Source: an uncultured Candidatus Saccharibacteria bacterium
GTDB lineage: Bacteria > Patescibacteriota > Minisyncoccia > Phycocordibacterales > GWA1-40-21
DNA length: 33,980 nt
Assembly (NCBI GenBank): GCA_964416925.1
Contig: CAYQFQ010000006.1
Location: 1 to 33,980, forward strand
Direction of reading: 5' to 3'
In this document: positions 3,315 to 33,980 of the stretch, piece by piece
How positions within the stretch are numbered: position 1 is the first letter of the stretch
Layout of the letters: the number at the start of each line of letters is the position of its first letter
Translations under genes and position numbers: made by a program
The notes under the pieces: model-generated
Databases searched by the model: none
Seen by the model: only the letters and a program-made list of their open reading frames with translations
Told to the model about the DNA's origin: nothing

Positions 3315-3317
3315 CTA

Positions 3318-3343
3318 CTGGATTCCCAATCATGTCGGGAATG
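3318..3343. repeat. REP-like palindromic repeat (CTGGATTCCC-N9-GGGAATG)
   Basis: ATTCCC-N9-GGGAAT palindrome; its reverse complement shares ATTCCCGACAT...GAATCCAG with the element at 7091-7119. Confidence 0.7.
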
Positions 3344-3357
3344 TTAGAAAGGAAAAA

Positions 3358-4458
3358 TTATAACCCTTCATTAATCAAATCATTGATGACTTTTTTTGCA
3401 TTCTTCGATAAATGAGTTGGAATTTTAATATTTACTTCTATTAGCAAGTCTCCTCTTCTACCATTGTCCATTGGTATTCCTTTTCCTTTGATTCTTAGAA
3501 CCTCACCAAAACTAACTCCTTCTGGTATTTTTAGTTCGATTGGTCCATCTAAGGTCTCAAGAGAATATTTAGCTCCCAACAGTGCATCAGATAATTTTAT
3601 ATTTAATACTGTGGCGATATCTTTTCCTTGTCTCTCAAATACAGTTTTATTTCTAACGTGAAGTTTAATGTATAAATCTCCATTTTGACCACCTTTAACT
3701 GCTTCTCCCGCGCCGGTCAGTCTGATGGACTCGCCATCCTCTACATCAAACGGAATATTAACCTTAACTTGTTCCTGTTTCTTTACGAGACCATCTCCAC
3801 CACATTTGTTACATTTCTCTTTGGGAACCTTCCCAATTCCGCCACATCTTTCGCATGTTTTTTCAGTATTGAATACTCCAAAAATTGATCTTTTTGTCTC
3901 AACAACTTTGCCTATCCCGTTACAGACTGAACATGTAACCATATCAGTACCTTTTTTAGCACCTGTTCCATTACAGTCATCACAATGAGAAGTTTTCGTA
4001 AAGGAAATATTTTTTTCTGCTCCAAATATTGATTCGGCAAAAGTTATTTCCAAATCAACTTGTATGTCTCTACCTTTTTTCTGCTTCTTGCGTCCACCTC
4101 CACCACCACCAAAGAAGTCCCCAAAAATATCTCCCAAATCAAATTCAAAATTTTGTCCTCCTTGAGCATTTTGAAAGCCGGAAAAATCAAAACCTCCAAA
4201 TCCACCCTGATCAAATCCACCAAAACCACCTCCTTGAGGACCACCATTTGAGAAAGTTTGACCATATTGATCGTACTGAGCTCTTTTTTCGTCATTACCC
4301 AAAACAGAGTAAGCTTCATTTACTTCTTTAAATTTCTCAGCATTACCACCTTTGTCTGGGTGATATTCATGAGCAAGCTTTCGGTAAGCCTTCTTTATTT
4401 CTTCTTTGGAAGCGTTTTTTTCTACTCCAAGTGATTGATAATAATCTTTTTTGGGCAT
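3358..4458 (-). CDS. dnaJ: Chaperone DnaJ
   Basis: J-domain with HPD, G/F-rich linker, four CxxCxGxG zinc-finger repeats and C-terminal domain. Confidence 0.98.
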
Positions 4459-4530: not shown

Positions 4531-4563
4531 ATTACAGGACTTAACAAATAACAAGGGGTGGTT

Positions 4564-5058
4564 ATGAAAGCTTTTTGGACTGTTGGTGTTGTTATTGTTG
4601 TGGCTCTTATTCTTTGCGGGATAAACTACAAAATCGGCGGAGTAGATCTGATTAAGTCGGGATTGGCTAGTGGTGTGAAGCTATTTGGTGGAATGATTGC
4701 ACTAATAGTTGCACTTTCATTTCTCTCTGGACAAATAAGTGCCTATTACAAGGAGAAACCTGATACAATCAAAAAAATTGTCGACGGTAAGCACGGTGTT
4801 CTAAAATCCATCTTAGCTGGAGTGATTATGCCTGGCGGGTTAGCTGCAGGACCGGTTCTTAAAACAGAGTGGGACAACGGTGGTAGCAAGTTGGCTATTA
4901 TCGCATTTCTGGTATCTTCTGGTCTTCTTAACTGGAGTGGAGTATTTTTCAGAATTCCCTTACTAGGGGGAGAAATAACTTCGATAATGTATGGTATAGG
5001 CATTGTCGTGGTTATGTCACTTGCCTCAATATACTTCGTTGCACGATTTGTGCACTAA
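4564..5058 (+). CDS. Predicted permease (DUF318/ArsP-like membrane protein)
   Basis: About 4-5 hydrophobic segments with LAGVIMPGG...AIIAFLVSSGLLN pattern. SD-like AAGGGGTG upstream of ATG 4564 (the ORF track starts at GTG 4558). Confidence 0.65.
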   Translation: MKAFWTVGVVIVVALILCGINYKIGGVDLIKSGLASGVKLFGGMIALIVALSFLSGQISAYYKEKPDTIKKIVDGKHGVLKSILAGVIMPGGLAAGPVLKTEWDNGGSKLAIIAFLVSSGLLNWSGVFFRIPLLGGEITSIMYGIGIVVVMSLASIYFVARFVH

Positions 5059-5123: not shown

Positions 5124-7043
5124 TTATTTTTGTTCTCCAGAATCATCTTTCTTTTTTTCCTCATAATCTGCATCTCTTACCTTTTCGTCTTTCTTTTCTT
5201 CACCTTGATTTGGGGCGCTTTGTGCTCCTGGGGCTGTTTGTCCTGCTTTGGACATTGCTTCACCAATCTTCTGCATCTCATTCGAAAGTGCTTCAGAAGC
5301 GGTTTTTATAGCTCCCATATCAGTTCCATTCTTAGCAGACTTCAAGGCTGTTATTTTATCTTCAACTGAACGAACAATTTCTGCTGGTACTTTGTCTTTA
5401 TTATCTTTCAAAGCTTTTTCCGCAGTATAAATCATTTGCTCTGCGATGTTTTTTGTCTCAACTTCATCTTTCTTCTTCTTATCTTCTTCTGCATGAAGCT
5501 CAGCATCTTTCTGCATTTTCTTTACATCGTCTTCAGAGAGACCCGATCTGGCTTCTATTCTAATAGACTGTTCTTTAGCTGTGGCTTTATCTTTTGCTTT
5601 AACATTTAGAATTCCGTTTGCATCCACATCAAACGTAACTTCAACTTGTGGCATACCTCTTGGTGATGGTGGTATTCCATCAAGAATAAATCTACCAAGA
5701 GATTTATTATCAGTCGCCATCGGTCTTTCTCCTTGAACGATATGTATTTCAACAGAGGTCTGATTATCTGCTGCTGTAGAGAAGATTTGGGTCTTTGAGG
5801 TGGGTATTGTGGTGTTTCTCTCTACGAGTTTTGTTGCAACACCTCCCATTGTCTCGATTCCGAGAGATAGTGGTATAACATCCAAAAGTAAAATGTCTTT
5901 GACATCTCCACGAAGAATTCCACCCTGAACCGCAGCACCGAGAGCCACGACTTCATCTGGGTTGATAGATAGGTTTGGTTCTTTCCCGAACAAATCCTTA
6001 ACAGCTTTTAATATTGCAGGCATTCTTGTCTGTCCTCCAACCATAAGAATTTGATCAATGTCAGCAAACTTGAATGGCGATGCAGCAACAGCTCTCTTTG
6101 TTATCTCAATTGATCTATCAATGTATTCTTTGGTCAAATTTTCAAGAGTTGCGCGAGAAAGTTTAAGTGCCAAGTGTTTAGGTCCATTTGCATCAGAAGT
6201 AATGAACGGAATATTTATTTCACTTTCCATTGCAGTTGAAAGCTCAATTTTTGCTTTTTCAGCGGCTTCATCAAGTCTCTGTAGTGCAAGCGCATCTTTT
6301 CTGACGTCAATTCCATTTTCTTTCTTAAATTCCTCTGCCATCCAATCGACGATTTTCTTATCAATATCACGACCACCAAGATGACTATCTCCATCTGTAG
6401 ATTTCACTTCTACAACTCCATCTCCAACCTCGAGAATGGAAATATCAAATGTTCCTCCTCCAAAGTCATAGACTGCGATCTGTTCATTCTTCTTTTTATC
6501 CATTCCGTAAGCAAGAGCTGCAGCGGTTGGCTCGTTAATAATTCTCAAAACATTAAGTCCTGCGATTTGTCCCGCATCTTTTGTTGCCTGCCTTTGTGAA
6601 TCGTTAAAGTATGCAGGAACTGTGATAACAGCATCTGTTATTTTTTCACCGAGTTTTGTCTCTGCATCAGTCTTCAGTTTCTGTAGGATCATAGCTGAAA
6701 CTTCCTCAGGTCTATAGTTCTTACCACCCATAGCAAGTTCTACACCTCCGTTTAAGGATTTTAATACATCAAATGATACAGATCCTTTATCTTTTTGAAC
6801 TCCAGCATCATCATACTGATGACCCATGAACCTTTTAACCTGAAAAACTGTGTTCTTTGGGTTTGTAACAGCCTGTCTTCTTGCTAGAAGACCGACTAGT
6901 CTCTCATTTGTTTTTGATGTTGCAACAATAGAAGGAGTTGTTCTTTGACCTTCAATGTTTTCAATGATTTTAGGAGCATCTCCATCCATAATTGCTACAG
7001 CGGAGAAAGTTGTTCCTAAATCGATTCCAATTATTTTTGACAT
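5124..7043 (-). CDS. dnaK: Chaperone DnaK (Hsp70)
   Basis: [31 protein letters not shown] motifs; 639 aa. Confidence 0.99.
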
Positions 7044-7090
7044 AAGTTAATTTAATTATTGTGAATAATAGATAGTAATTACACCCTCTT

Positions 7091-7163
7091 TGTTATTCCC
7101 GACATAACCGAGAATCCAGTGTAATTTAAATAATCCTGGATCCCCGCATACGCGAGGATGACA
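7091..7163. repeat. Inverted pair of REP-like palindromes forming a branched stem-loop in the dnaK leader
   Basis: TGTTATTCCCGACATAACCGAGAATCCAG (7091-7119) and CTGGATCCCCGCATACGCGAGGATGACA (7136-7163) are mutually inverted degenerate copies, each internally palindromic. Confidence 0.75.
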
Positions 7164-7171
7164 GAAAACAC

Positions 7172-7471
7172 TTATGCAAAATTAGGAGCTCGAGTAATTT
7201 GACTTGAGAAAAATGATAAATCTTTTTGTGCTAAAAAATTATATGAAAAAAGTGGTTGTTTAAGTGGGATAATCGGAATACTTTCTATGTGCGTTGGTAG
7301 AGCATAAATTTTTTCTTCAGAAGTAGTTTGTGAAATTAATTTTCCACAGATAGCTCTAGCCTTCAACCTTCCATTTACTTCAACAATTTCAAAAACAACC
7401 ATCGCCAAAGTTCCGTTTGGCAAACGCACCATTTTTTCTAAGTATTTTGGCTGTTTTTGAATTGATAACAT
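7172..7471 (-). CDS. 99-aa upstream ORF of dnaK with C-terminal RAP motif (candidate arrest peptide)
   Basis: Open frame with its own consensus promoter directly before the ATG; ends ...FFSSQITRAPNFA*. Confidence 0.75.
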   Translation of the reverse strand: MLSIQKQPKYLEKMVRLPNGTLAMVVFEIVEVNGRLKARAICGKLISQTTSEEKIYALPTHIESIPIIPLKQPLFSYNFLAQKDLSFFSSQITRAPNFA

Positions 7472-7477
7472 ATAACG

Positions 7478-7505
7478 ATTATAACTAAAGAATAATCAGA
7501 GTCAA
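7478..7505 (-). promoter_or_regulatory. Sigma70-type promoter driving the uORF-dnaK transcript (apparently leaderless)
   Basis: TTGACT (7505-7500), 16-nt spacer, TATAAT (7483-7478), 6 nt, ATG. Confidence 0.8.
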
Positions 7506-7530
7506 TATTAGAATAAACACAAAATTAATC

Positions 7531-8145
7531 CTAATTTGATTCACCAACCACAACTTTTGGAGCCAGAATTACTCTACCATTTATAGAGTATCCTTTCTTC
7601 TTAACAAATAGAATTACCCCAACTTTTGAATCATCCTCTACCTTTTCCATTTCTTCAGCGACATGAAGCCCTGGATCAAACTTTTGACCAACGGGATTCA
7701 TCTCTTCAATACCATTTTCTTTTAAGACTTTAATTAAATGAGTATGAATATACTCCACACCAACACGCCAGTTTTTATCAACTTTTTCCCAAGCTTCGCG
7801 ATTTGCATAAGCCATTTCAAAACTATCTAGCACTGGGACTAAATCTTCAACCAAGCTCTCATTAGCATATTTAATCAATTCAACTTTCTCATTTTCTATT
7901 CTTTTTTTGTAATTTACAAAGTCTGCTCTTTCTCTCTGCCAACCATCCATATATTCCTGTTTTTCTTTTTCGCAAAGTTTTAGCTTTTCTCGAAGATTCT
8001 TAACTAACAACTCGAGGGATTCCTCAACTTCTTCAGGGACCACTTGGTCAGAATCTGTTAAATCTTTTTTGTTAGTTTTGGATTTCTTGGTCAATTCACT
8101 GTCATATACGACATCGTCTGAATTTTGATTATTTTTGTTATTCAT
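7531..8145 (-). CDS. grpE: Nucleotide exchange factor GrpE
   Basis: QRERADFVNYKKR, LVPVLDSF, FDPGLH, KKGY...GRVI...KVVV motifs. Confidence 0.96.
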   Translation of the reverse strand: MNNKNNQNSDDVVYDSELTKKSKTNKKDLTDSDQVVPEEVEESLELLVKNLREKLKLCEKEKQEYMDGWQRERADFVNYKKRIENEKVELIKYANESLVEDLVPVLDSFEMAYANREAWEKVDKNWRVGVEYIHTHLIKVLKENGIEEMNPVGQKFDPGLHVAEEMEKVEDDSKVGVILFVKKKGYSINGRVILAPKVVVGESN

Positions 8146-8169
8146 AATATTAAGTGTATTTATATCTAT

Positions 8170-8197
8170 ATTCTATCACATTTTTTTAACAAATCAA
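8170..8197 (-). promoter_or_regulatory. Probable grpE promoter
   Basis: TTGATT, 16-nt spacer, extended -10 TG-A-TAGAAT. Confidence 0.55.
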
Positions 8198-8336
8198 CAT
8201 TTCAATGTATTAATATAATTTAGAGTAATACAATTTAGATTATGTATTTTTTATGAATTTTAAATTTAAAAATCATTGATTTATAAGTTTCCGGGTATAA
8301 CATGAATATGGGTTATGATTTTAATGAAAGGAGAAA

Positions 8337-8486
8337 ATGAAAACTGGATTATTTCTTGTTGGCCTCGTGAGTATTTTTGCAACATTGTTTGCTTACAAAA
8401 AACACAGCGTCGTCGCTGTGTCATCCATGAGGATGGATATCAGCTCTGGATTCTCAAAAGATCCAGATTGGGACAACTACATTTAA
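8337..8486 (+). CDS. 49-aa small membrane or secreted protein (below ORF-track cutoff)
   Basis: AAAGGAG SD before ATG 8337. Translation MKTGLFLVGLVSIFATLFAYKKHSVVAVSSMRMDISSGFSKDPDWDNYI* has one hydrophobic helix, and a terminator follows. Confidence 0.7.
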   Translation: MKTGLFLVGLVSIFATLFAYKKHSVVAVSSMRMDISSGFSKDPDWDNYI

Positions 8487-27225: not shown

Positions 27226-28518
27226 TTAATTATTAATAATTTTAATTATACCAGCATTTGCATCAACTTCAACATTATCACCGTCTTTTATAACAAGTGT
27301 TGCATTCTTTGTACCTATAACACATGGAATATTTAATTCGCGACTTATAATTGCAGCGTGACATGTAATACTACCTTCGTTTGTCACTACGGCAGAAGCC
27401 TTTTTCATTAAATAAATAAACTCAGGACGAGTCATTGAGGTCACCAATATATCCCCTTCATTAAACTCTTTTACATTTGCTGAATCCATAACTACTCTCG
27501 CAGTCCCTCGAACAATTCCCTTGTTGGCTGTAACACCCTTAATTATCTTCAAATCTGATGTGACGTCAAACATTTTTTGTGTCTCAGAATACTCACCGAG
27601 ACTAATCTGATAGCTTCTATCAGGGTTGAGCAACACAACGTAACCGCTAGTCCTCTTTATAATTTCTTCTTCAGTTGGAAGTTTATCTTGAATTAATTCC
27701 AATGGCATTATTAAAGGTAAATACCTATCTGCCAAATTAGGATATAACAATTTCGTACAACGTGTCATCACGGTTAAATATTTCATCATTGAATCTTTCC
27801 TTTCGTCACGTAACCTAATTATAAACGAAACATAATTAGCCCAGCCTTCATCAAACGTTTCAATGTTATAATTCGTCTCATCCTCATTTAAACTTTTCTG
27901 CTGTGTCTCTGTTAGTTTCTGTTTAACTTTATCTATCGGATCTGTAAAATAATAATCCGTAAACATAAACTCAATTTCTTTCGGCTCTTTTGCTTCTCTC
28001 ATCAATCTATCCCATCTTTTTTCAAAATGTTCAAACTTTGGATTTATTGCCTTTTCCCATAGTTCTTTCGATATCTTTTTCCTAAGAACTTCCTCTACCA
28101 TTTCAATATCAAGATATTCACCGTATATTGTAAATGCAAAAAACTGACTTCCTAGATCATAAGCTCTGCGCAAAGTCTCTTTCGGATCTGTTATCTTGTC
28201 GTCGTATAGCTTATTAATATTTTCTTTCACCCGGATAAATAATTTATATAATTCATCAATAGTAATCAATCCGTCAAGATAATCTTTTAATACATCAATC
28301 GAATATCCTTTAAATCTTTCATCACTAAAAACAAATATAGCATCCCTTTCTTTTCCAATCAGTAAGCACGGAGTTGTCTTTGTTTTATATAATTTTGAAA
28401 AATTTTTATCTTCACACCACGGATTCATCAACATCAAAACAGAAAGAGGTCCACGTAAAATAGCTTCTTTTTCATTATTGATTGAATTTCTAAATGTCTC
28501 CAGAAGTCCCCTGTTCAT
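27226..28518 (-). CDS. PEP-utilizing swivel (phospho-His) domain protein lacking an ATP-grasp domain
   Basis: C-terminal GVTANKGIVRG...GDILVTSMTRPE...TNEGSITCHAAIISRELNIPCVIG (His387), preceded by a ~320-aa helical region. Confidence 0.9.
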   Translation of the reverse strand: MNRGLLETFRNSINNEKEAILRGPLSVLMLMNPWCEDKNFSKLYKTKTTPCLLIGKERDAIFVFSDERFKGYSIDVLKDYLDGLITIDELYKLFIRVKENINKLYDDKITDPKETLRRAYDLGSQFFAFTIYGEYLDIEMVEEVLRKKISKELWEKAINPKFEHFEKRWDRLMREAKEPKEIEFMFTDYYFTDPIDKVKQKLTETQQKSLNEDETNYNIETFDEGWANYVSFIIRLRDERKDSMMKYLTVMTRCTKLLYPNLADRYLPLIMPLELIQDKLPTEEEIIKRTSGYVVLLNPDRSYQISLGEYSETQKMFDVTSDLKIIKGVTANKGIVRGTARVVMDSANVKEFNEGDILVTSMTRPEFIYLMKKASAVVTNEGSITCHAAIISRELNIPCVIGTKNATLVIKDGDNVEVDANAGIIKIINN

Positions 28519-30980: not shown

Positions 30981-33980
30981 ACTTAATTATTCTAACTACA
31001 CCAGTATTAGCATCAACTTCAATAAGATCACCATCTTTTATCACCTTGGTGGCAATCTTGGTACCAATAATACATGGCTTACCCATTTCTCTAGCAACAA
31101 TAGCGGCATGAGATGTTATACCACCCTGATTAGTAACAAATGCTGCAGCCTTACCCATAGAAGGAATATAATCAGGAGTTGTTTCTGGTGCAATGAGAAT
31201 CATTCCCGCCTGAACCTTAAACTGATCACTTGGCTTGAGTACAATAACAGCTAATCCACGAACGATTCCTTTGTTACCTATGGAACCCTTAAATTCTTTT
31301 ACATCTTCATGTTTGTCTAATAGACCAAAATACTTTTCCCACTCAAGTAATTCATCTCCAACAGCCACATGGTTTTGCCCTTTTATTTTTATAAAACCGA
31401 GACCTTTCTGTCGTTCACGTATCACTGCTAATATTTCATCTTTATTTTTACTTAAATCTTTAATTTCAAATGAAATAAGATAAATTAAATCATCATATTT
31501 TAGACCATTTTCTTCGGCCAGCTTTGTCATATATGGTCTAAACTTATAAGCCAATAAAGCTGAACTTTGAGCGCACTCAAGCCTCCATTTTGTTGCTCGT
31601 GCAATAATGTTGAATGCCTCAACACCACTCTCAGTTTTTTGATTTTTTGATTCTAAGCTAGCATTTTTTATTGCATCCATAAGACGACCTATACTTCTTT
31701 CATCACCCCATAAATGGTGAGTGCCGATATACTCAGTAACTTTTTGATATTCTTTTATTTTCTGAGCAAGATCTTTATCCTCCTTTTCCAATTCGCTAAT
31801 ATCAAAAGAGAGCTTTTTATTTTCTATAATTTCTTTAAATCGAGAAAGTTCTTTTTGATCATCAGTTAAAGAATTTGTCAGTTGAGGAATCATCTCGCCC
31901 ACATCCTCAATTGGAACATTGTTAAGTTTTGCATATTTCTTCAAATAGTCTTCCCCTGCTTCACCTATTGGAAAACATCCAAACCATGGGAATCTTAGCT
32001 TTGACATCAAGTCAAATGCTTTTGTGAAATCTTCTTGTGTTGGATTTGATTTAACCTTTTCCGCCATTTCTAAACATTCATTACACATTCGTTCTGCAAG
32101 ACTAAGTATTTTATTTGTAAACTTAAAATCCCCAGATTCAAATTCAGAACTTACCATTTTCACTAATTTAGGATACGATCCATCTTTTGGCATAAAGTAA
32201 TGACCATTTATTACAATAGACGCTGGATCATCCTGAGTTAACCCAAATGATTTAGCTCCTTCTGTATTACACCAATCAACCCAAATCTCGAATTCAAGAG
32301 TAGGAGAAACCCACTGACCCAAAGTAAAATATTCACTTGCATCCTTAAAAGTAAAACCTAACACAGAAAGACTTTTTTTTGCATCAGTTCCGGCGCTTTG
32401 TAATATTTTAACCTTTCCAGTGTTTGCATCCACTTCAATAAGGTCACCATCTTTAATTAATTTTGTTGCATTTTTTGTTCCAATAACACAAGGTTTTTTC
32501 ATTTCCCTAGCGATGATAGCTGCGTGACAAGATAAACCGCCTTCATCAGTAACGAAAGCTATCGCTTTTTCCATTGCTGGAACGAAATCTGGAGTCGTCA
32601 TTGATGTAACCAAAATATTACCCTGCTCAATACGATAGTTCTCTTTGGCTGAATACAGCACCCTTGCTATTCCTTGAACTTTTCCCATACAGGCGACTTG
32701 TCCGACTATTTCATCCCCCAAACTCAAACTTGATTCAACAATATCTTTTATTTCTTTAGCTCTCTTTGGTGCAAGGTCGTAAAATTCATTATCTAAGATA
32801 ACAAAACTATAAGTTTCTTTTCTTTTTTCAATCAATTCTAAATCAACTTTTTTATCTAGAAGTAAATCTCTTATTTCCCAATAATATCCAAGCGCAAGAT
32901 CACTAAGAGGTATCTTTTTGCCTATCTTATAGAAAACTTCTTTTAAATTGTATCCTGCCTCAATAATACAGTCTCTCCTGATTAATCTAATATGTGGTAA
33001 CATTTGGGCACTTTTACACAAATCCACAAGCTTTTCGTTTAATTTATATTTCTCAATTATATCTTTTTGTCGTTCTGCCAATTCCTTAAAACCTTCATTC
33101 ATCTTCTTCAACTCTTCCTTAGGATTATCAATTACAGGTATATCCTTATTGAATTCATCAAAAGACTGATATTTAAAAGAAAAAGTCTGGTCAGTTGACC
33201 ATGCGTATTTCTCATAGATTTCTTTAAGATCTTTTCCTTCCAAAATATCTATCTTCTTAAGATTCATATCAGAAGACTTCGTCGGAGAAGTAAGTAAAAC
33301 GATTGTCTCTTTAAAAAGATTGAAATCTACTTTTGGATCAATGTACTTTGCCAATTCAGCTTCAATCTGACTTAACATCCATTTTTCTGGAGCCGCACAA
33401 GGCCATAGATGACTCATTATCTTTAAAGATTTCTCAATAAATGAATCGTAAACGTTAATCAAATCATCTGAATTTTTTTGTTCTTTAGACCAAGAAATAA
33501 ATTCTAAACAATCTTTTTCTACTTTTTCAAAATATCTGTTAAAAAATGTATTATCTTTTTGGGCTTTTTGTAAAATAATATCCTCCAATTTCTTAAGATC
33601 ATTTTCACAATAATAAATATCATTATCCAAAACAATATGAACCGCCATTCTACTGTCAAAATCTAATTCCGGATTATTTAAGGTTGATCCAATTCTCATG
33701 ATTGAATTGAAAAGCGGACTATTATTCCTTCGAACGATCTTTGCAAGTTTAAGTTTTTTAATATCTGGATCTTTAGATATAAGTCTAATTCCATTTTTTT
33801 CATCAACAACAATCTCAGACTTTAATTCTCCCCCCTCCACACACACCCCACTTTCATTTGTCGGAGTCACTACCTTCTGAAGTGTTGTAATCGGTCTTGA
33901 TTGAACAATGTAGAATTTGTTCTTCTCGAATGCCCATTCAATATCACAAGGGAAACCATAGTGATTCTCAATTCTCATGA
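30979..33980 (-). CDS. Large PEP-synthase/rifampin-phosphotransferase-like protein with two tandem helical+swivel modules; 5' end outside the window
   Basis: Begins with the C-terminal end of the PPDK/PpsA ATP-grasp domain (DIEWAF...YIVQSRPITTL). Swivel 1 is GGLSCHAAIIARE (His485 of the visible ORF) and swivel 2 is GGITSHAAIVARE (His957). No PEP/pyruvate TIM barrel. Confidence 0.9.
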   Translation of the reverse strand, partial: MRIENHYGFPCDIEWAFEKNKFYIVQSRPITTLQKVVTPTNESGVCVEGGELKSEIVVDEKNGIRLISKDPDIKKLKLAKIVRRNNSPLFNSIMRIGSTLNNPELDFDSRMAVHIVLDNDIYYCENDLKKLEDIILQKAQKDNTFFNRYFEKVEKDCLEFISWSKEQKNSDDLINVYDSFIEKSLKIMSHLWPCAAPEKWMLSQIEAELAKYIDPKVDFNLFKETIVLLTSPTKSSDMNLKKIDILEGKDLKEIYEKYAWSTDQTFSFKYQSFDEFNKDIPVIDNPKEELKKMNEGFKELAERQKDIIEKYKLNEKLVDLCKSAQMLPHIRLIRRDCIIEAGYNLKEVFYKIGKKIPLSDLALGYYWEIRDLLLDKKVDLELIEKRKETYSFVILDNEFYDLAPKRAKEIKDIVESSLSLGDEIVGQVACMGKVQGIARVLYSAKENYRIEQGNILVTSMTTPDFVPAMEKAIAFVTDEGGLSCHAAIIAREMKKPCVIGTKNATKLIKDGDLIEVDANTGKVKILQSAGTDAKKSLSVLGFTFKDASEYFTLGQWVSPTLEFEIWVDWCNTEGAKSFGLTQDDPASIVINGHYFMPKDGSYPKLVKMVSSEFESGDFKFTNKILSLAERMCNECLEMAEKVKSNPTQEDFTKAFDLMSKLRFPWFGCFPIGEAGEDYLKKYAKLNNVPIEDVGEMIPQLTNSLTDDQKELSRFKEIIENKKLSFDISELEKEDKDLAQKIKEYQKVTEYIGTHHLWGDERSIGRLMDAIKNASLESKNQKTESGVEAFNIIARATKWRLECAQSSALLAYKFRPYMTKLAEENGLKYDDLIYLISFEIKDLSKNKDEILAVIRERQKGLGFIKIKGQNHVAVGDELLEWEKYFGLLDKHEDVKEFKGSIGNKGIVRGLAVIVLKPSDQFKVQAGMILIAPETTPDYIPSMGKAAAFVTNQGGITSHAAIVAREMGKPCIIGTKIATKVIKDGDLIEVDANTGVVRIIK

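Follow-up and report, generated by a model that had tools for sequence, protein, structure and literature searches.

What does the 99-aa open reading frame (ORF) between grpE and dnaK encode, and could its translation set the level of DnaK? We analysed this locus within the whole 33,980-nt stretch of DNA, referred to here as the window. The first-pass annotation had read the ORF as a candidate ribosome arrest peptide controlling dnaK, followed by a stem-loop. Comparative sequence evidence suggests that the ORF may indeed encode an ApcA-like arrest peptide controlling dnaK translation, a reading to which we assign a probability of roughly 0.55. The gene order and the motif conservation that the earlier proposal called for were both found, but its RNA half fared worse: the stem-loop is part of a mobile repeat, and the pairing at the dnaK start in the window is at background level. 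Feature coordinates are collected in Table 1.

An unannotated gene family upstream of dnaK

The ORF lies where it had been placed in the first-pass annotation, on the minus strand with grpE and dnaK on either side, and dnaJ comes after dnaK. The encoded protein ends in ...RAPNFA (FFSSQITRAPNFA, then TAA), and the RAP codons, CGA GCT CCT, are at 7192..7184, as annotated. We found no annotation or name for the ORF in any source checked, and no match in Pfam, NCBIfam, the PDB or fold searches. The Pfam scan, which should cover the SecM family, returned no match to that family either.

Judged by its homologs, the ORF is a member of a real, unannotated gene family. Full-length homologs were found in 32 of the 36 genomes of the same taxonomic family, and the ORF family is present in 47 of 251 genomes of the window's order and in none of 400 other genomes of the phylum. 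A library of 1.84 billion proteins yielded 257 clusters matching the ORF at E≤1e-3. Frames of 95–125 codons with an ATG start are maintained across 72 loci, at identities of 23–87%. The position upstream of dnaK, on which the earlier proposal hinged, recurs throughout: dnaK lies downstream of an R-[AG]-P ORF, on the same strand, at all 72 informative loci (73 genomes). Upstream, 62 of 69 loci carry a grpE in the same orientation. Among the 69 loci tabulated, the spacer between the ORF and dnaK measures 27–730 nt (median 146 nt); in L081 it reaches about 1 kb. The gap between grpE and dnaK in genomes lacking the ORF is only 25–110 nt (4/4 genomes checked).

Table 1. Features of the grpE–ORF–dnaK region, in window coordinates.
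Feature	Position	Strand	Basis or remark
Candidate arrest/leader peptide ORF of dnaK	7172..7471	minus	99 codons, ATG start; stop TAA 7174..7172
-35 hexamer TTGACT, putative promoter serving the ORF and dnaK	7500..7505	minus	promoter scan
-10 hexamer TATAAT	7478..7483	minus	promoter scan; 6 nt before ORF ATG
Predicted three-stranded beta-meander with two Asn-Gly turns	7337..7444	minus	residues 10–45, AlphaFold2 model
Variable linker, residues 46–86	7214..7336	minus	contains conserved Leu58-Pro59
Candidate arrest motif FFSSQITRAP, residues 87–96	7184..7213	minus	family pattern FxxSQxTRAP
Pro96 codon, predicted P-site	7186..7184	minus	part of candidate arrest motif
Asn97 codon, predicted A-site of stalled ribosome	7181..7183	minus	position after RAP
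Closing-stem 5' arm CATAAGT (last sense codon, stop, 2 nt)	7170..7176	minus	MFE and centroid fold of 7189..7041
Closing-stem 3' arm ACTTATG, covering the dnaK start codon	7041..7047	minus	MFE and centroid fold
Palindromic dispersed repeat (REP- or MITE-like)	7088..7168	minus	within closing-stem loop
grpE, upstream neighbour	7531..8145	minus	PF01025, E 1e-37; own promoter-like site 8197..8170
dnaK (Hsp70), presumed regulated gene	5124..7043	minus	PF00012, E 4e-248

A conserved R-A-P motif close to the C-terminal end

Residues 87–96 form the best-conserved block of the protein at 3.51 bits per column, compared with 2.06 for the N-terminal domain and a mean of 1.0 for the linker (residues 46–74), so the earlier expectation that the RAP stretch would be the most conserved part held. 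In 148 sequences R94 and P96 are 100% conserved and A95 is conserved in 98%, the remainder having Gly. Counted by locus, the core is RAP in 66/69 and RGP in 3/69, with an additional RGP in L056. The stop codon follows 2–8 codons past RAP in 70 of 72 loci, the exceptions being L088 and L081 with 12 and 29 residues after RAP, and among the best 150 cluster representatives 146 have R[AG]P 2–6 residues from the C-terminus. All six Arg, all four Ala and all four Pro codons occur at the RAP positions; the use of all six Arg codons indicates that selection acts on the peptide. Such protein ends are rare in this genome: of its 2021 ORFs that are 40 aa or longer, only the window ORF and its copy on contig C52 carry R[AG]P in their last nine residues.

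The residue that follows RAP, which would occupy the A-site of a stalled ribosome, is drawn from a small set. It is Ser in 32, Asn in 13, Ala in 13, Thr in 9 and Asp in 2 of the 69 loci, and Ser in 101, Ala in 24, Asn in 17, Thr in 3 and Asp in 1 of the 146 cluster representatives; Pro or Gly was never found in either set. ApcA, an R-A-P-G arrest peptide of Actinobacteria, is encoded upstream of yidC (Sakiyama et al., 2021, PMC7897499; Fujiwara et al., 2024, PMC10987492). In the assays reported for ApcA, arrest was permitted by A-site P, C, N, T, S, G, D and A, while ApdA and ApdP strictly required Pro (PMC7897499); by the same account, ApcA tolerates the set S/N/A/T/D, with weaker arrest than Pro gives, whereas ApdA and ApdP do not tolerate it. 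Natural uORFs described for the ApcA cluster include RAPS, RAPA, RAPT, RAPD, RGPT and RGPS (PMC10987492). In ApdA and ApdP, Ala-to-Gly is the sole fully permissive substitution reported and Arg is irreplaceable (PMC12992588). The first-pass annotation had counted the Asn after RAP as a weakness. It fits, however: Asn belongs to the family's own S/N/A/T/D set and is among the residues reported as permissive in ApcA. Characterised members of the class have Pro or Gly in the A-site, and as neither occurs here, any arrest is likely to be weak and context-dependent.

A predicted N-terminal domain at a narrowly distributed distance from the motif

The true N-terminus of the protein is M1 (MLSIQKQ...), with M1 and L2 invariant in 31/31 aligned homologs. 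The domain start given earlier, MVRLPNG..., corresponds to residue 14 and had missed M1 upstream, but the beta-rich character suggested for this region was retained: AlphaFold2 predicts a beta-meander with strands at residues 10–16, 22–32 and 35–45 and a block pLDDT of 87–90. Within it P18, G20, F27 and G34 are invariant (31 sequences). Confident prediction is limited to this meander; the C-terminal half of the model is of low confidence, and the linker has pLDDT values of 61–76 and indels in the alignment. A Foldseek search of the model against the PDB returned nothing at E≤0.001. Known monitoring substrates carry an N-terminal signal peptide or transmembrane (TM) segment that the machinery under their control recognises. 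A crude hydropathy test showed no such segment in this family: the 19-residue Kyte-Doolittle maximum reaches 1.25 for the window ORF and stays under 1.6 for 135 of 148 members.

Residue 45 is the last of the meander, and residue 96 would be the Pro in the P-site. Across the family, G34 and this Pro are a median of 65 residues apart (5–95% range 60–75). Monitoring substrates are described as requiring a spacer of more than 30–40 residues, and the spacers of MifM and ApcA as narrowly distributed (PMC10987492). By that description, the sensor-to-stall spacer here exceeds the required length and is narrowly distributed, as for MifM and ApcA. Residues 10–45 are the putative sensor, which would be outside the ribosome at the stall.

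A specifically folded mini-domain of this kind also fits an ordinary protein. The product could be a small cytosolic member of the DnaK system, for instance an accessory factor or regulator, whose meander is the functional domain and whose SQxTRAP tail docks to a partner such as DnaK, DnaJ, GrpE, the ribosome or a protease; the hairpin would then do no more than tie translation of dnaK to that of the ORF. We regard this as unlikely, yet worth weighing. Conservation in the N-terminal domain is fold-like, with the four invariant residues and a pLDDT of about 90, the tight linkage to grpE and dnaK is often seen for co-chaperone genes, and linear docking motifs are typically conserved disordered tails. 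A hairpin spanning the stop codon would, moreover, give plain translational coupling without a stall. The protein has, however, no family, solved structure or fold match to support such a function. The residues after RAP vary in sequence and in length (2–8, rarely 12 or 29), which argues against a motif that needs a free C-terminus. DnaK binds hydrophobic peptides, and the polar SQxTRAP is unlike them. Docking also offers no reason for the substitution pattern itself, in which R and P are invariant, Ala changes only to Gly and S, N, A, T or D comes next; this is the pattern of arrest mutagenesis, as far as the published assays described above extend.

Promoter and heat-shock regulators

A promoter scan matched the site upstream of the ORF at 11 of 12 consensus positions with a 16-nt spacer, confirming the near-consensus promoter first annotated here (TTGACT-16-TATAAT-6-ATG). 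It is one of just two promoter-like sites in 6900..8400, where shuffled sequences gave 7.2 ± 2.9. A perfect TATAAT 5–8 nt ahead of the ATG was present at 28 of 52 homologous loci, versus 38 of 524 long ORFs of this genome. With TATAAT 6 nt from the ATG, a leaderless or nearly leaderless mRNA is predicted. The promoter resembles the housekeeping sigma-70 type. The same scan found no promoter-like site within 7044..7170, bearing out the earlier statement that dnaK has no clear promoter of its own. The dnaK leader is A/T-rich and has no Shine-Dalgarno core, and GGAG, GAGG or AGGA at -20..-4 was found in 0/69 dnaK leaders.

HrcA (PF01628) was detected in 0/61 genomes of the order, with 7/14 control genomes positive. 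As the first-pass annotation had also noted, there is no CIRCE element; our search with the CIRCE consensus covered the window at up to 3 mismatches. An Rfam cmscan of 6800..8400 at E≤10 gave eight chance-level matches, all with E>1 and far below gathering scores; no Rfam thermometer or other RNA family matched the region between the ORF and dnaK.

RNA structure between the ORF and dnaK

In the window, the predicted closing stem is 7 bp long, and of 524 other gene leaders in the genome, 55% equal or exceed the dnaK leader in pairing with the ORF end. Its 5' arm begins 8 nt past the Pro codon, within the presumed reach of a ribosome stalled at Pro. The stem-loop at 7163..7091 that had been proposed as part of the regulatory element is present and folds above shuffles (-33.2 kcal/mol for the 132-nt stretch past the ORF stop, z -3.4), but it is not specific to this locus and belongs to a dispersed mobile repeat. 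Elsewhere in this 0.75-Mb genome the repeat is matched, in full or in part, at 14 further places (10 with E≤3e-4), and an inverted partial copy lies at 3317..3342, just past dnaJ. Related elements occupy the ORF–dnaK spacer in other genomes, and these spacers often hold mobile repeats.

The signal is clearer in relatives with short spacers. Of the 16 loci whose spacer is at most 75 nt, 15 have a segment from RAP to the dnaK ATG that outperforms its dinucleotide shuffles in folding (p≤0.05), with modest stabilities of -9.6 to -21.5 kcal/mol. Relative to the last nucleotide of the Pro codon, the 5' arm of these hairpins starts at -6 to +5 nt; the 3' arm stops 0–13 nt short of the dnaK ATG. The stem sequences vary by lineage, as in the triple compensatory change between L049 and L058. 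A duplex test reached p≤0.01 in 8 of 10 loci with a spacer of at most 52 nt and p<0.05 in only 14 of 54 loci overall, most long-spacer loci failing. The RNA switch predicted in our model is well supported solely for the short-spacer relatives.

These hairpins raise the possibility that the RNA is the regulator. An A/U-rich hairpin at the dnaK start would then serve as an RNA thermometer or a coupling element and melt when heat shock sets in, translation of the ORF would just deliver ribosomes, and RAP conservation would be unrelated to stalling. dnaK is a classic heat-shock gene, its start region is sequestered in the 15 short-spacer loci by significant if modest hairpins, and neither HrcA in the genomes searched nor CIRCE in the window was detected; a housekeeping sigma-70-like promoter makes post-transcriptional control plausible. 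We nonetheless consider it improbable that RNA acts in this way instead of a peptide. It leaves unexplained that the peptide motif is the most conserved element while its codons vary freely, and that the 5' arm is anchored at the RAP codons and not elsewhere in the spacer. The Rfam matches, all at E>1, include no thermometer, and the pairing is mostly absent from long-spacer loci. An RNA switch is also compatible with an arrest peptide, and both could act together. That 7172..7471 is instead a non-coding, untranslated dnaK leader left open by chance, as the lack of any annotation, name or Pfam family wherever checked might suggest, is for practical purposes refuted by the comparative data, in which 72 diverged loci keep the frame open and conservation is at the amino-acid level with synonymous positions free to vary.

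A proposed model for the control of dnaK translation

Most likely, on the sequence comparisons above, the ORF is the first cistron of a leaderless ORF–dnaK mRNA and its product acts as a regulator while still nascent, as a peptide of the R-A-P class with ApcA as its nearest counterpart. A ribosome that has translated ...FFSSQITRAP would hold the Pro96 codon in its P-site and Asn97 in its A-site, and FxxSQxTRAP, lying in the upper exit tunnel and peptidyl-transferase centre, would slow or block formation of the next peptide bond. The paused ribosome would occupy the 5' arm of the hairpin, whose 3' arm covers the A-rich dnaK start region that lacks a Shine-Dalgarno sequence, and a longer pause would presumably mean more initiation at dnaK. 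In secM-secA, the downstream start site is reported to be hidden by an mRNA stem-loop that a stall opens (PMC7897499). The beta-meander, about 50 residues from the stall site, would by then lie outside the tunnel, where its folding or its engagement by DnaK/DnaJ might pull on the chain and end the pause. Release of this kind would amount to homeostatic feedback on DnaK. We infer from sequence only that there is a stall, which way it acts on dnaK and what signal it senses.

A stronger version of the arrest-peptide model is tentative, and we think it more doubtful than probable: the stall would be released only by free DnaK/DnaJ or by successful folding, free Hsp70 capacity, sensed on the ribosome itself, would set dnaK translation by way of the hairpin, and the circuit would replace HrcA- or sigma-32-type control in part of the order. 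The arrest-peptide profiling results reported in PMC12290083 include no pronounced effect of chaperone binding itself on arrest release, and a folding signal that was mostly raised by deletion of DnaK. Going by those results, a sensor pulled by DnaK is not established physics in bacteria, and the sign of the feedback is uncertain.

Comparison with known arrest peptides and heat-shock systems

The likeness to ApcA was drawn from features rather than from sequence alignment. Both are small uORFs directly upstream of the gene regulated, or presumed to be, with a conserved C-terminal R-A-P near the stop and a stall, predicted for the dnaK ORF, with Pro in the P-site; residues upstream of RAP, on which ApcA arrest depends, are a further point of likeness. 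The next-residue variants S, A, T and D, the occurrence of RGP and a narrow sensor-to-stall spacer are likewise shared with the ApcA uORFs described in PMC10987492. There are also differences. ApcA monitors YidC and bears a TM segment at its N-terminus, whereas the dnaK ORF has no TM segment or signal peptide, carries a predicted beta-meander and precedes dnaK. The commonest A-site residue of ApcA is Gly, which is absent from the dnaK ORF family, and ApcA comes from Actinobacteria, the dnaK ORF from a small-genome order.

SecM, ApdA, ApdP and the 'RQH' RAPP-like peptides, which lie upstream of secA and secDF, have the same R-A-(P/G) core as the dnaK ORF, with Arg irreplaceable and Ala-to-Gly tolerated, and their phylogenetic distribution is as patchy as that of the family. 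Unlike it, they are reported to need A-site Pro, which the family never has; they also bear secretion signals, and translocation is what releases them. RAPP and RGPP uORFs also occur upstream of non-Sec genes, including those for CruR and TonB-dependent receptors, copper genes, thioredoxin genes and a set in S. lividans (Fujiwara et al., 2025, PMC12992588), so R-A-P-type arrest peptides regulate genes beyond protein localization. Those uORFs mostly encode secretory or membrane proteins with RAPP or RGPP, neither of which is found in the dnaK ORF family; DnaK or Hsp70 has 0 occurrences in the main text of that study, the search of which covered RAPP/RGPP only.

The proposed logic, in which chaperone synthesis responds to the level of free chaperone or to temperature, is that of titration systems and RNA thermometers. 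Heat-shock control of the DnaK-titration type pairs sigma-32 with DnaK/DnaJ in E. coli, HspR with DnaK and HrcA with GroEL, and the thermometers include ROSE and FourU. Thermometers have an A/U-rich hairpin over the start site of a heat-shock gene, as predicted for the short-spacer dnaK loci. In all of these the control is exerted by a transcription factor or by the RNA itself, whereas the ORF would act through a nascent-peptide sensor.

Implications

To our knowledge, the characterised bacterial monitoring substrates all sense membrane or extracytoplasmic events (Sec, YidC, metals) and carry export signals. From its sequence, the dnaK ORF may be the first stalling sensor, or 'monitoring substrate', for a cytosolic chaperone. 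If so, force-sensing translation arrest would extend to cytosolic protein folding, and control of the main chaperone would be explained in an ultra-small, uncultivated bacterial order in which HrcA was not detected. An R-A-P uORF free of export signals, with a small predicted domain at a suitable distance from the motif, would be a new type of sensor. The ORF (about 300 nt) with a 30–130-nt spacer offers a concrete, easily cloned system that bears on the long-standing question of whether Hsp70 binding or co-translational folding exerts a regulatory force on a ribosome-bound chain. The family also widens the pattern used in arrest-peptide searches from RAPP/RGPP to RAP[SNATD].

The ORF and its neighbourhood

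The ORF ends in ...FFSSQITRAPNFA, followed by a TAA stop, as the first-pass annotation had read it, and the promoter proposed there is likewise present, with TTGACT and TATAAT boxes separated by 16 nt and the ATG 6 nt further on. A promoter scan of positions 6900..8400 returned only two promoter-like sites, the ORF promoter among them, where shuffled sequences give 7.2. The scan placed none between the ORF and dnaK, in agreement with the claim that dnaK has no separate promoter, and no CIRCE element, also said to be absent, occurs within the window. The reading frame itself stands, but its N-terminus had to be revised: the start is MLSIQKQ..., not the internal Met14, and M1 and L2 are invariant among homologs. 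Further downstream, dnaK and dnaJ are 665 nt apart, and the gap contains a 166-aa hydrophobic ORF on the opposite strand, with a weak Pfam match to Gate (E 0.0095, under the cut-off); because of this ORF, dnaJ may not be co-transcribed with dnaK.

Positions of the features discussed, in window coordinates unless a contig is named
Feature	Position	Strand	Remark
grpE	8145..7531	minus	
ORF promoter	7505..7478		
99-codon ORF	7471..7172	minus	between grpE and dnaK
RAP codons	7192..7184		
Stem-loop	7163..7091		
dnaK	7043..5124	minus	
166-aa ORF	4558-5058	plus	
dnaJ	4458..3358	minus	
Palindromic repeat, ~80 nt	7088-7168; 3317-3342		two GC-rich hairpin halves and A/T-rich centre
Palindromic repeat	contigs C2, C4, C8, C25, C28, C37, C39 and others of the window's own genome		loci L002-L008
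195-nt direct repeat	27233-27427; 30983-31177; 32399-32593		three copies

Full-length homologs of 95–125 codons, all with an ATG start, occur in 32 of the family's 36 other genomes. An alignment of 31 of them gave a profile (A1) that matched 47 of 251 genomes sampled from the order (genome sizes 0.5–1.2 Mb), patchily over many families, and none of 400 genomes sampled elsewhere in the phylum; against a library of 1.84 billion proteins it recovered 257 clusters at E ≤ 1e-3. The link to dnaK, on which the first-pass annotation had made its reading depend, held throughout. Loci were collected from 73 genomes, one of which (L030) stops before the downstream gene, and in all 72 informative loci the ORF is followed by dnaK on the same strand; of the 69 tabulated loci, 62 have grpE upstream. 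Four genomes that lack the ORF have a grpE–dnaK gap of only 25–110 nt. That grpE abuts dnaK in these genomes argues that the ORF and its promoter are a lineage-specific module inserted ahead of dnaK.

Of the 2021 ORFs in the window's own genome that reach 40 aa, only two carry R[AG]P within the last nine residues: the window ORF and a copy on a 2090-nt contig (C52; locus L041), where a second pair of grpE and RAP-ORF is found in the same assembly. The C52 copy is 50% identical to the window ORF and nearly identical to sequences of genus g2, such as that of L016. Bin contamination is 2.99%, and C52 probably came into the bin from a relative in a sister genus; it is unlikely to be a paralog. At two further loci, L081 (genome G135) and L088 (genome G174), SQMTRAP is kept and then followed by 29 and 12 further residues, respectively; L081 also has ~1 kb inserted between the ORF and dnaK, including an extra ORF.

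Conservation and predicted structure of the peptide

Information content per column was calculated for the window ORF together with 147 cluster representatives. As the first-pass annotation had anticipated, the stretch around RAP was the most conserved part: residues 87–96 (FxxSQxTRAP) carry 3.51 bits, compared with 2.06 bits per column in the β-rich N-terminal region (residues 10–45) and 1.0 bit per column in the linker (residues 46–74). Conservation is 100% at R94 and P96 and 98% at A95. The core reads RAP in 66 of 69 genomic loci and RGP in three, and is followed by 2–8 residues and a stop; the tail of locus L056 is RGPNA*. The residue after the core is S in 32 of these loci, N in 13, A in 13, T in 9 and D in 2, and in the set of 146 representatives S is again the most frequent (101), before A (24), N (17), T (3) and D (1); Pro or Gly is never found there in either set. 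SQPTRAPS is a commoner form of the tail than that of the window ORF. At the core, every Arg, Ala and Pro codon occurs (six, four and four, respectively), which argues that selection acts on the peptide, not the RNA. Across 540 long ORFs of the window's own genome, RAP was seen 6 times vs. 14.8 expected, and APR is just as low.

The AlphaFold2 model of the ORF product has a three-stranded β-meander with a pLDDT of ~90 that ends at residue 45, and this, with the putative P-site Pro at residue 96, sets the spacing from the putative sensor to the predicted stall site. The C-terminal half is of low confidence (mean pLDDT 72.5 and pTM 0.37 for the model). A TM-like segment was not found: hydropathy peaks at 1.25 in the ORF product and stays under 1.6 in 135 of 148 members. 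Database searches did not identify the product: Pfam gave chance-level matches only, both for the ORF alone and for all 31 aligned members, and the best NCBIfam match (E 0.01) was far below any cut-off. A profile search of the PDB had a best E of 1, Foldseek found no PDB match to the model at E ≤ 0.001, and the ESM Atlas gave no usable match. A search for homologous proteins returned nine close relatives, none of them named or with a Pfam domain. An AbrB-like repressor was rejected for lack of a fold match in these searches, and a C-terminal degron as the residues that follow RAP differ in both length and sequence.

The foremost rival explanation is that the ORF encodes an ordinary small protein of the DnaK system, with a docking tail and translational coupling to dnaK. 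We consider this rather unlikely. A complex prediction for the ORF product and the substrate-binding domain of DnaK (residues 385–615) gave no answer (score 0.00), and counts neither way.

Comparison with known R-A-P arrest peptides

The passages of PMC7897499 that deal with stalling place the RAP-tRNA of ApcA, ApdA and ApdP at the P-site, and report that ApdA and ApdP require Pro in the A-site, whereas ApcA (RAPG) accepts P, C, N, T, S, G, D and A. The Arg of the motif is described as irreplaceable in PMC12992588. Natural uORFs of the ApcA cluster, as given in PMC10987492, read RAPG, S, A, T, D, C, Q, E or V, and RGPT, S or G. The ORF family shows the same variation as ApcA: R and P are fixed, A is replaced by G only, and the next residue is S, N, A, T or D. 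Arrest of the ApcA type can differ from species to species.

The section of PMC10987492 on search criteria asks of a monitoring substrate that it be a uORF of its target gene, that its C-terminus be conserved, and that its spacer exceed 30–40 residues, and the ORF family has all three properties. The distance from G34 to the Pro is narrow (median 65, 5–95% range 60–75), resembling the narrow spacer distributions that the same source reports for MifM and ApcA. Known monitoring substrates carry an N-terminal export signal, whereas the ORF family has none and is predicted to carry the β-meander instead; according to PMC12992588, R-A-P arrest peptides are also known upstream of non-Sec genes. Searches of the full-text literature, with supplementary uORF tables outside their scope, turned up no paper that describes an arrest peptide or a uORF ahead of dnaK or grpE, nor any that connects arrest peptides with a cytosolic chaperone or with Patescibacteria; DnaK and Hsp70 go unmentioned in the main text of PMC12992588, the survey of 2025. 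The surveys cover sec/yidC neighbours (PMC10987492) and RAPP/RGPP (PMC12992588), and their supplementary data might list related uORFs. R-A-P arrest peptides themselves are known; new in the ORF family would be the predicted link to dnaK.

Start signals and the hairpin before dnaK

Among 52 loci, 28 have a perfect TATAAT that ends 5–8 nt upstream of the ORF ATG, and 36 match it at five or more of the six positions. As background, 38 of 524 long ORFs of the window's own genome have a perfect TATAAT ending 5–8 nt before their first ATG. A −10 box conserved next to the ATG, above this background, predicts that the dnaK message is leaderless and has the ORF as its first cistron. The dnaK leaders consist of 52% A and 4% G, and a Shine-Dalgarno core is found in 0 of 69. 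This is nothing special to dnaK, since such a core is present in just 49 of the 524 long ORFs called, by a crude procedure, in the window's own genome; together with the frequency of TATAAT near the ATG, it suggests that SD-independent and leaderless initiation are frequent in the window's lineage.

The region from RAP to the dnaK ATG folds significantly better than dinucleotide shuffles in 15 of the 16 loci with a spacer of at most 75 nt. The fold is a single hairpin, whose 5' arm begins between −6 and +5 nt relative to the Pro codon's end and whose 3' arm finishes 0–13 nt before the dnaK ATG, and its pairing is kept while the stem sequences vary by lineage. An independent duplex test reached p ≤ 0.01 for eight of the ten loci whose spacers are up to 52 nt, but p < 0.05 for only 14 of 54 over all spacers. 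Such a hairpin might also act as an RNA thermometer or couple translation with no arrest at all, which we hold to be improbable, and which is compatible with the arrest reading. That the ORF is a non-coding leader of dnaK is excluded by the comparative data.

In the window, both the MFE and the centroid fold pair 7176..7170 (last codon, stop and 2 nt) with 7047..7041 (dnaK AUG included), leaving the palindromic repeat in the loop. The closing stem is 7 bp, the ORF 3' end and the dnaK leader pair at −6.4 kcal/mol, and this pairing is no better than that with 55% of 524 other gene leaders. As this short stem does not stand above other leaders, it is by homology to the relatives that an RNA switch is plausible at the window locus. 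A ribosome covers ~12–15 nt of mRNA downstream of its P-site, and one stalled with Pro96 in the P-site should reach the 5' arm of the predicted hairpin in the window.

Proposed control of dnaK

Our preferred reading, to which we give a probability of about 55% on comparative grounds, is that a ribosome translating the ORF would halt at RAP|N in an elongation arrest of the ApcA type and probably of moderate strength; the hairpin would thereby stay open for longer, and initiation at dnaK would rise. A more tentative extension, of which we are doubtful, is that the DnaK/DnaJ system engages the exposed β-meander, or that the meander folds, and that either event would release the arrest and provide feedback. 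The arrest of SecM is released by force, and Hsp70 at a pore exit exerts entropic pulling. Arrest-peptide profiling, as reported in PMC12290083, found that chaperone binding had little effect on arrest release and that loss of DnaK mostly raised folding signals. With this caveat, the β-meander is a candidate sensor, and the feedback could be of either sign. HrcA (PF01628) was matched in 0 of 61 genomes of the order (G000–G060) and in 7 of 14 control genomes, and the ORF promoter looks constitutive in the promoter scan; both observations are consistent with translational control.

Repeats and other observations

The stem-loop that the first-pass annotation had placed after the ORF does fold (z −3.4 for the 132 nt 3' of the stop), but it is not specific to the locus, being a dispersed palindromic repeat. 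The repeat has 14 other matches in the 0.75-Mb genome, one of them just 3' of dnaJ. In many relatives, related elements occupy the same spacer between the ORF and dnaK, and longer spacers between the ORF and dnaK are mostly filled by palindromic repeat elements. By eye, the repeat of the sister species G001 (locus L010) occupies the identical site but is inverted, and the spacer is 128 nt there too.

Three loci, L013, L018 and L021, have a GC-rich hairpin directly 3' of the ORF stop, with varying sequence and pairing kept. Next, in these three and in L035 (ORF–dnaK spacers of 67–85 nt), comes a short AGTA...TACT palindrome, which is immediately followed by a T-run in all of the four but L021; its role ahead of dnaK in that genus could be that of a weak terminator, of an attenuator or of an operator. 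A metagenome look-up listed ten freshwater or lake DNA runs from seven studies, and no RNA run. Elsewhere in the window, the copies of the 195-nt direct repeat are 66–71% identical and are probably paralogous coding segments.
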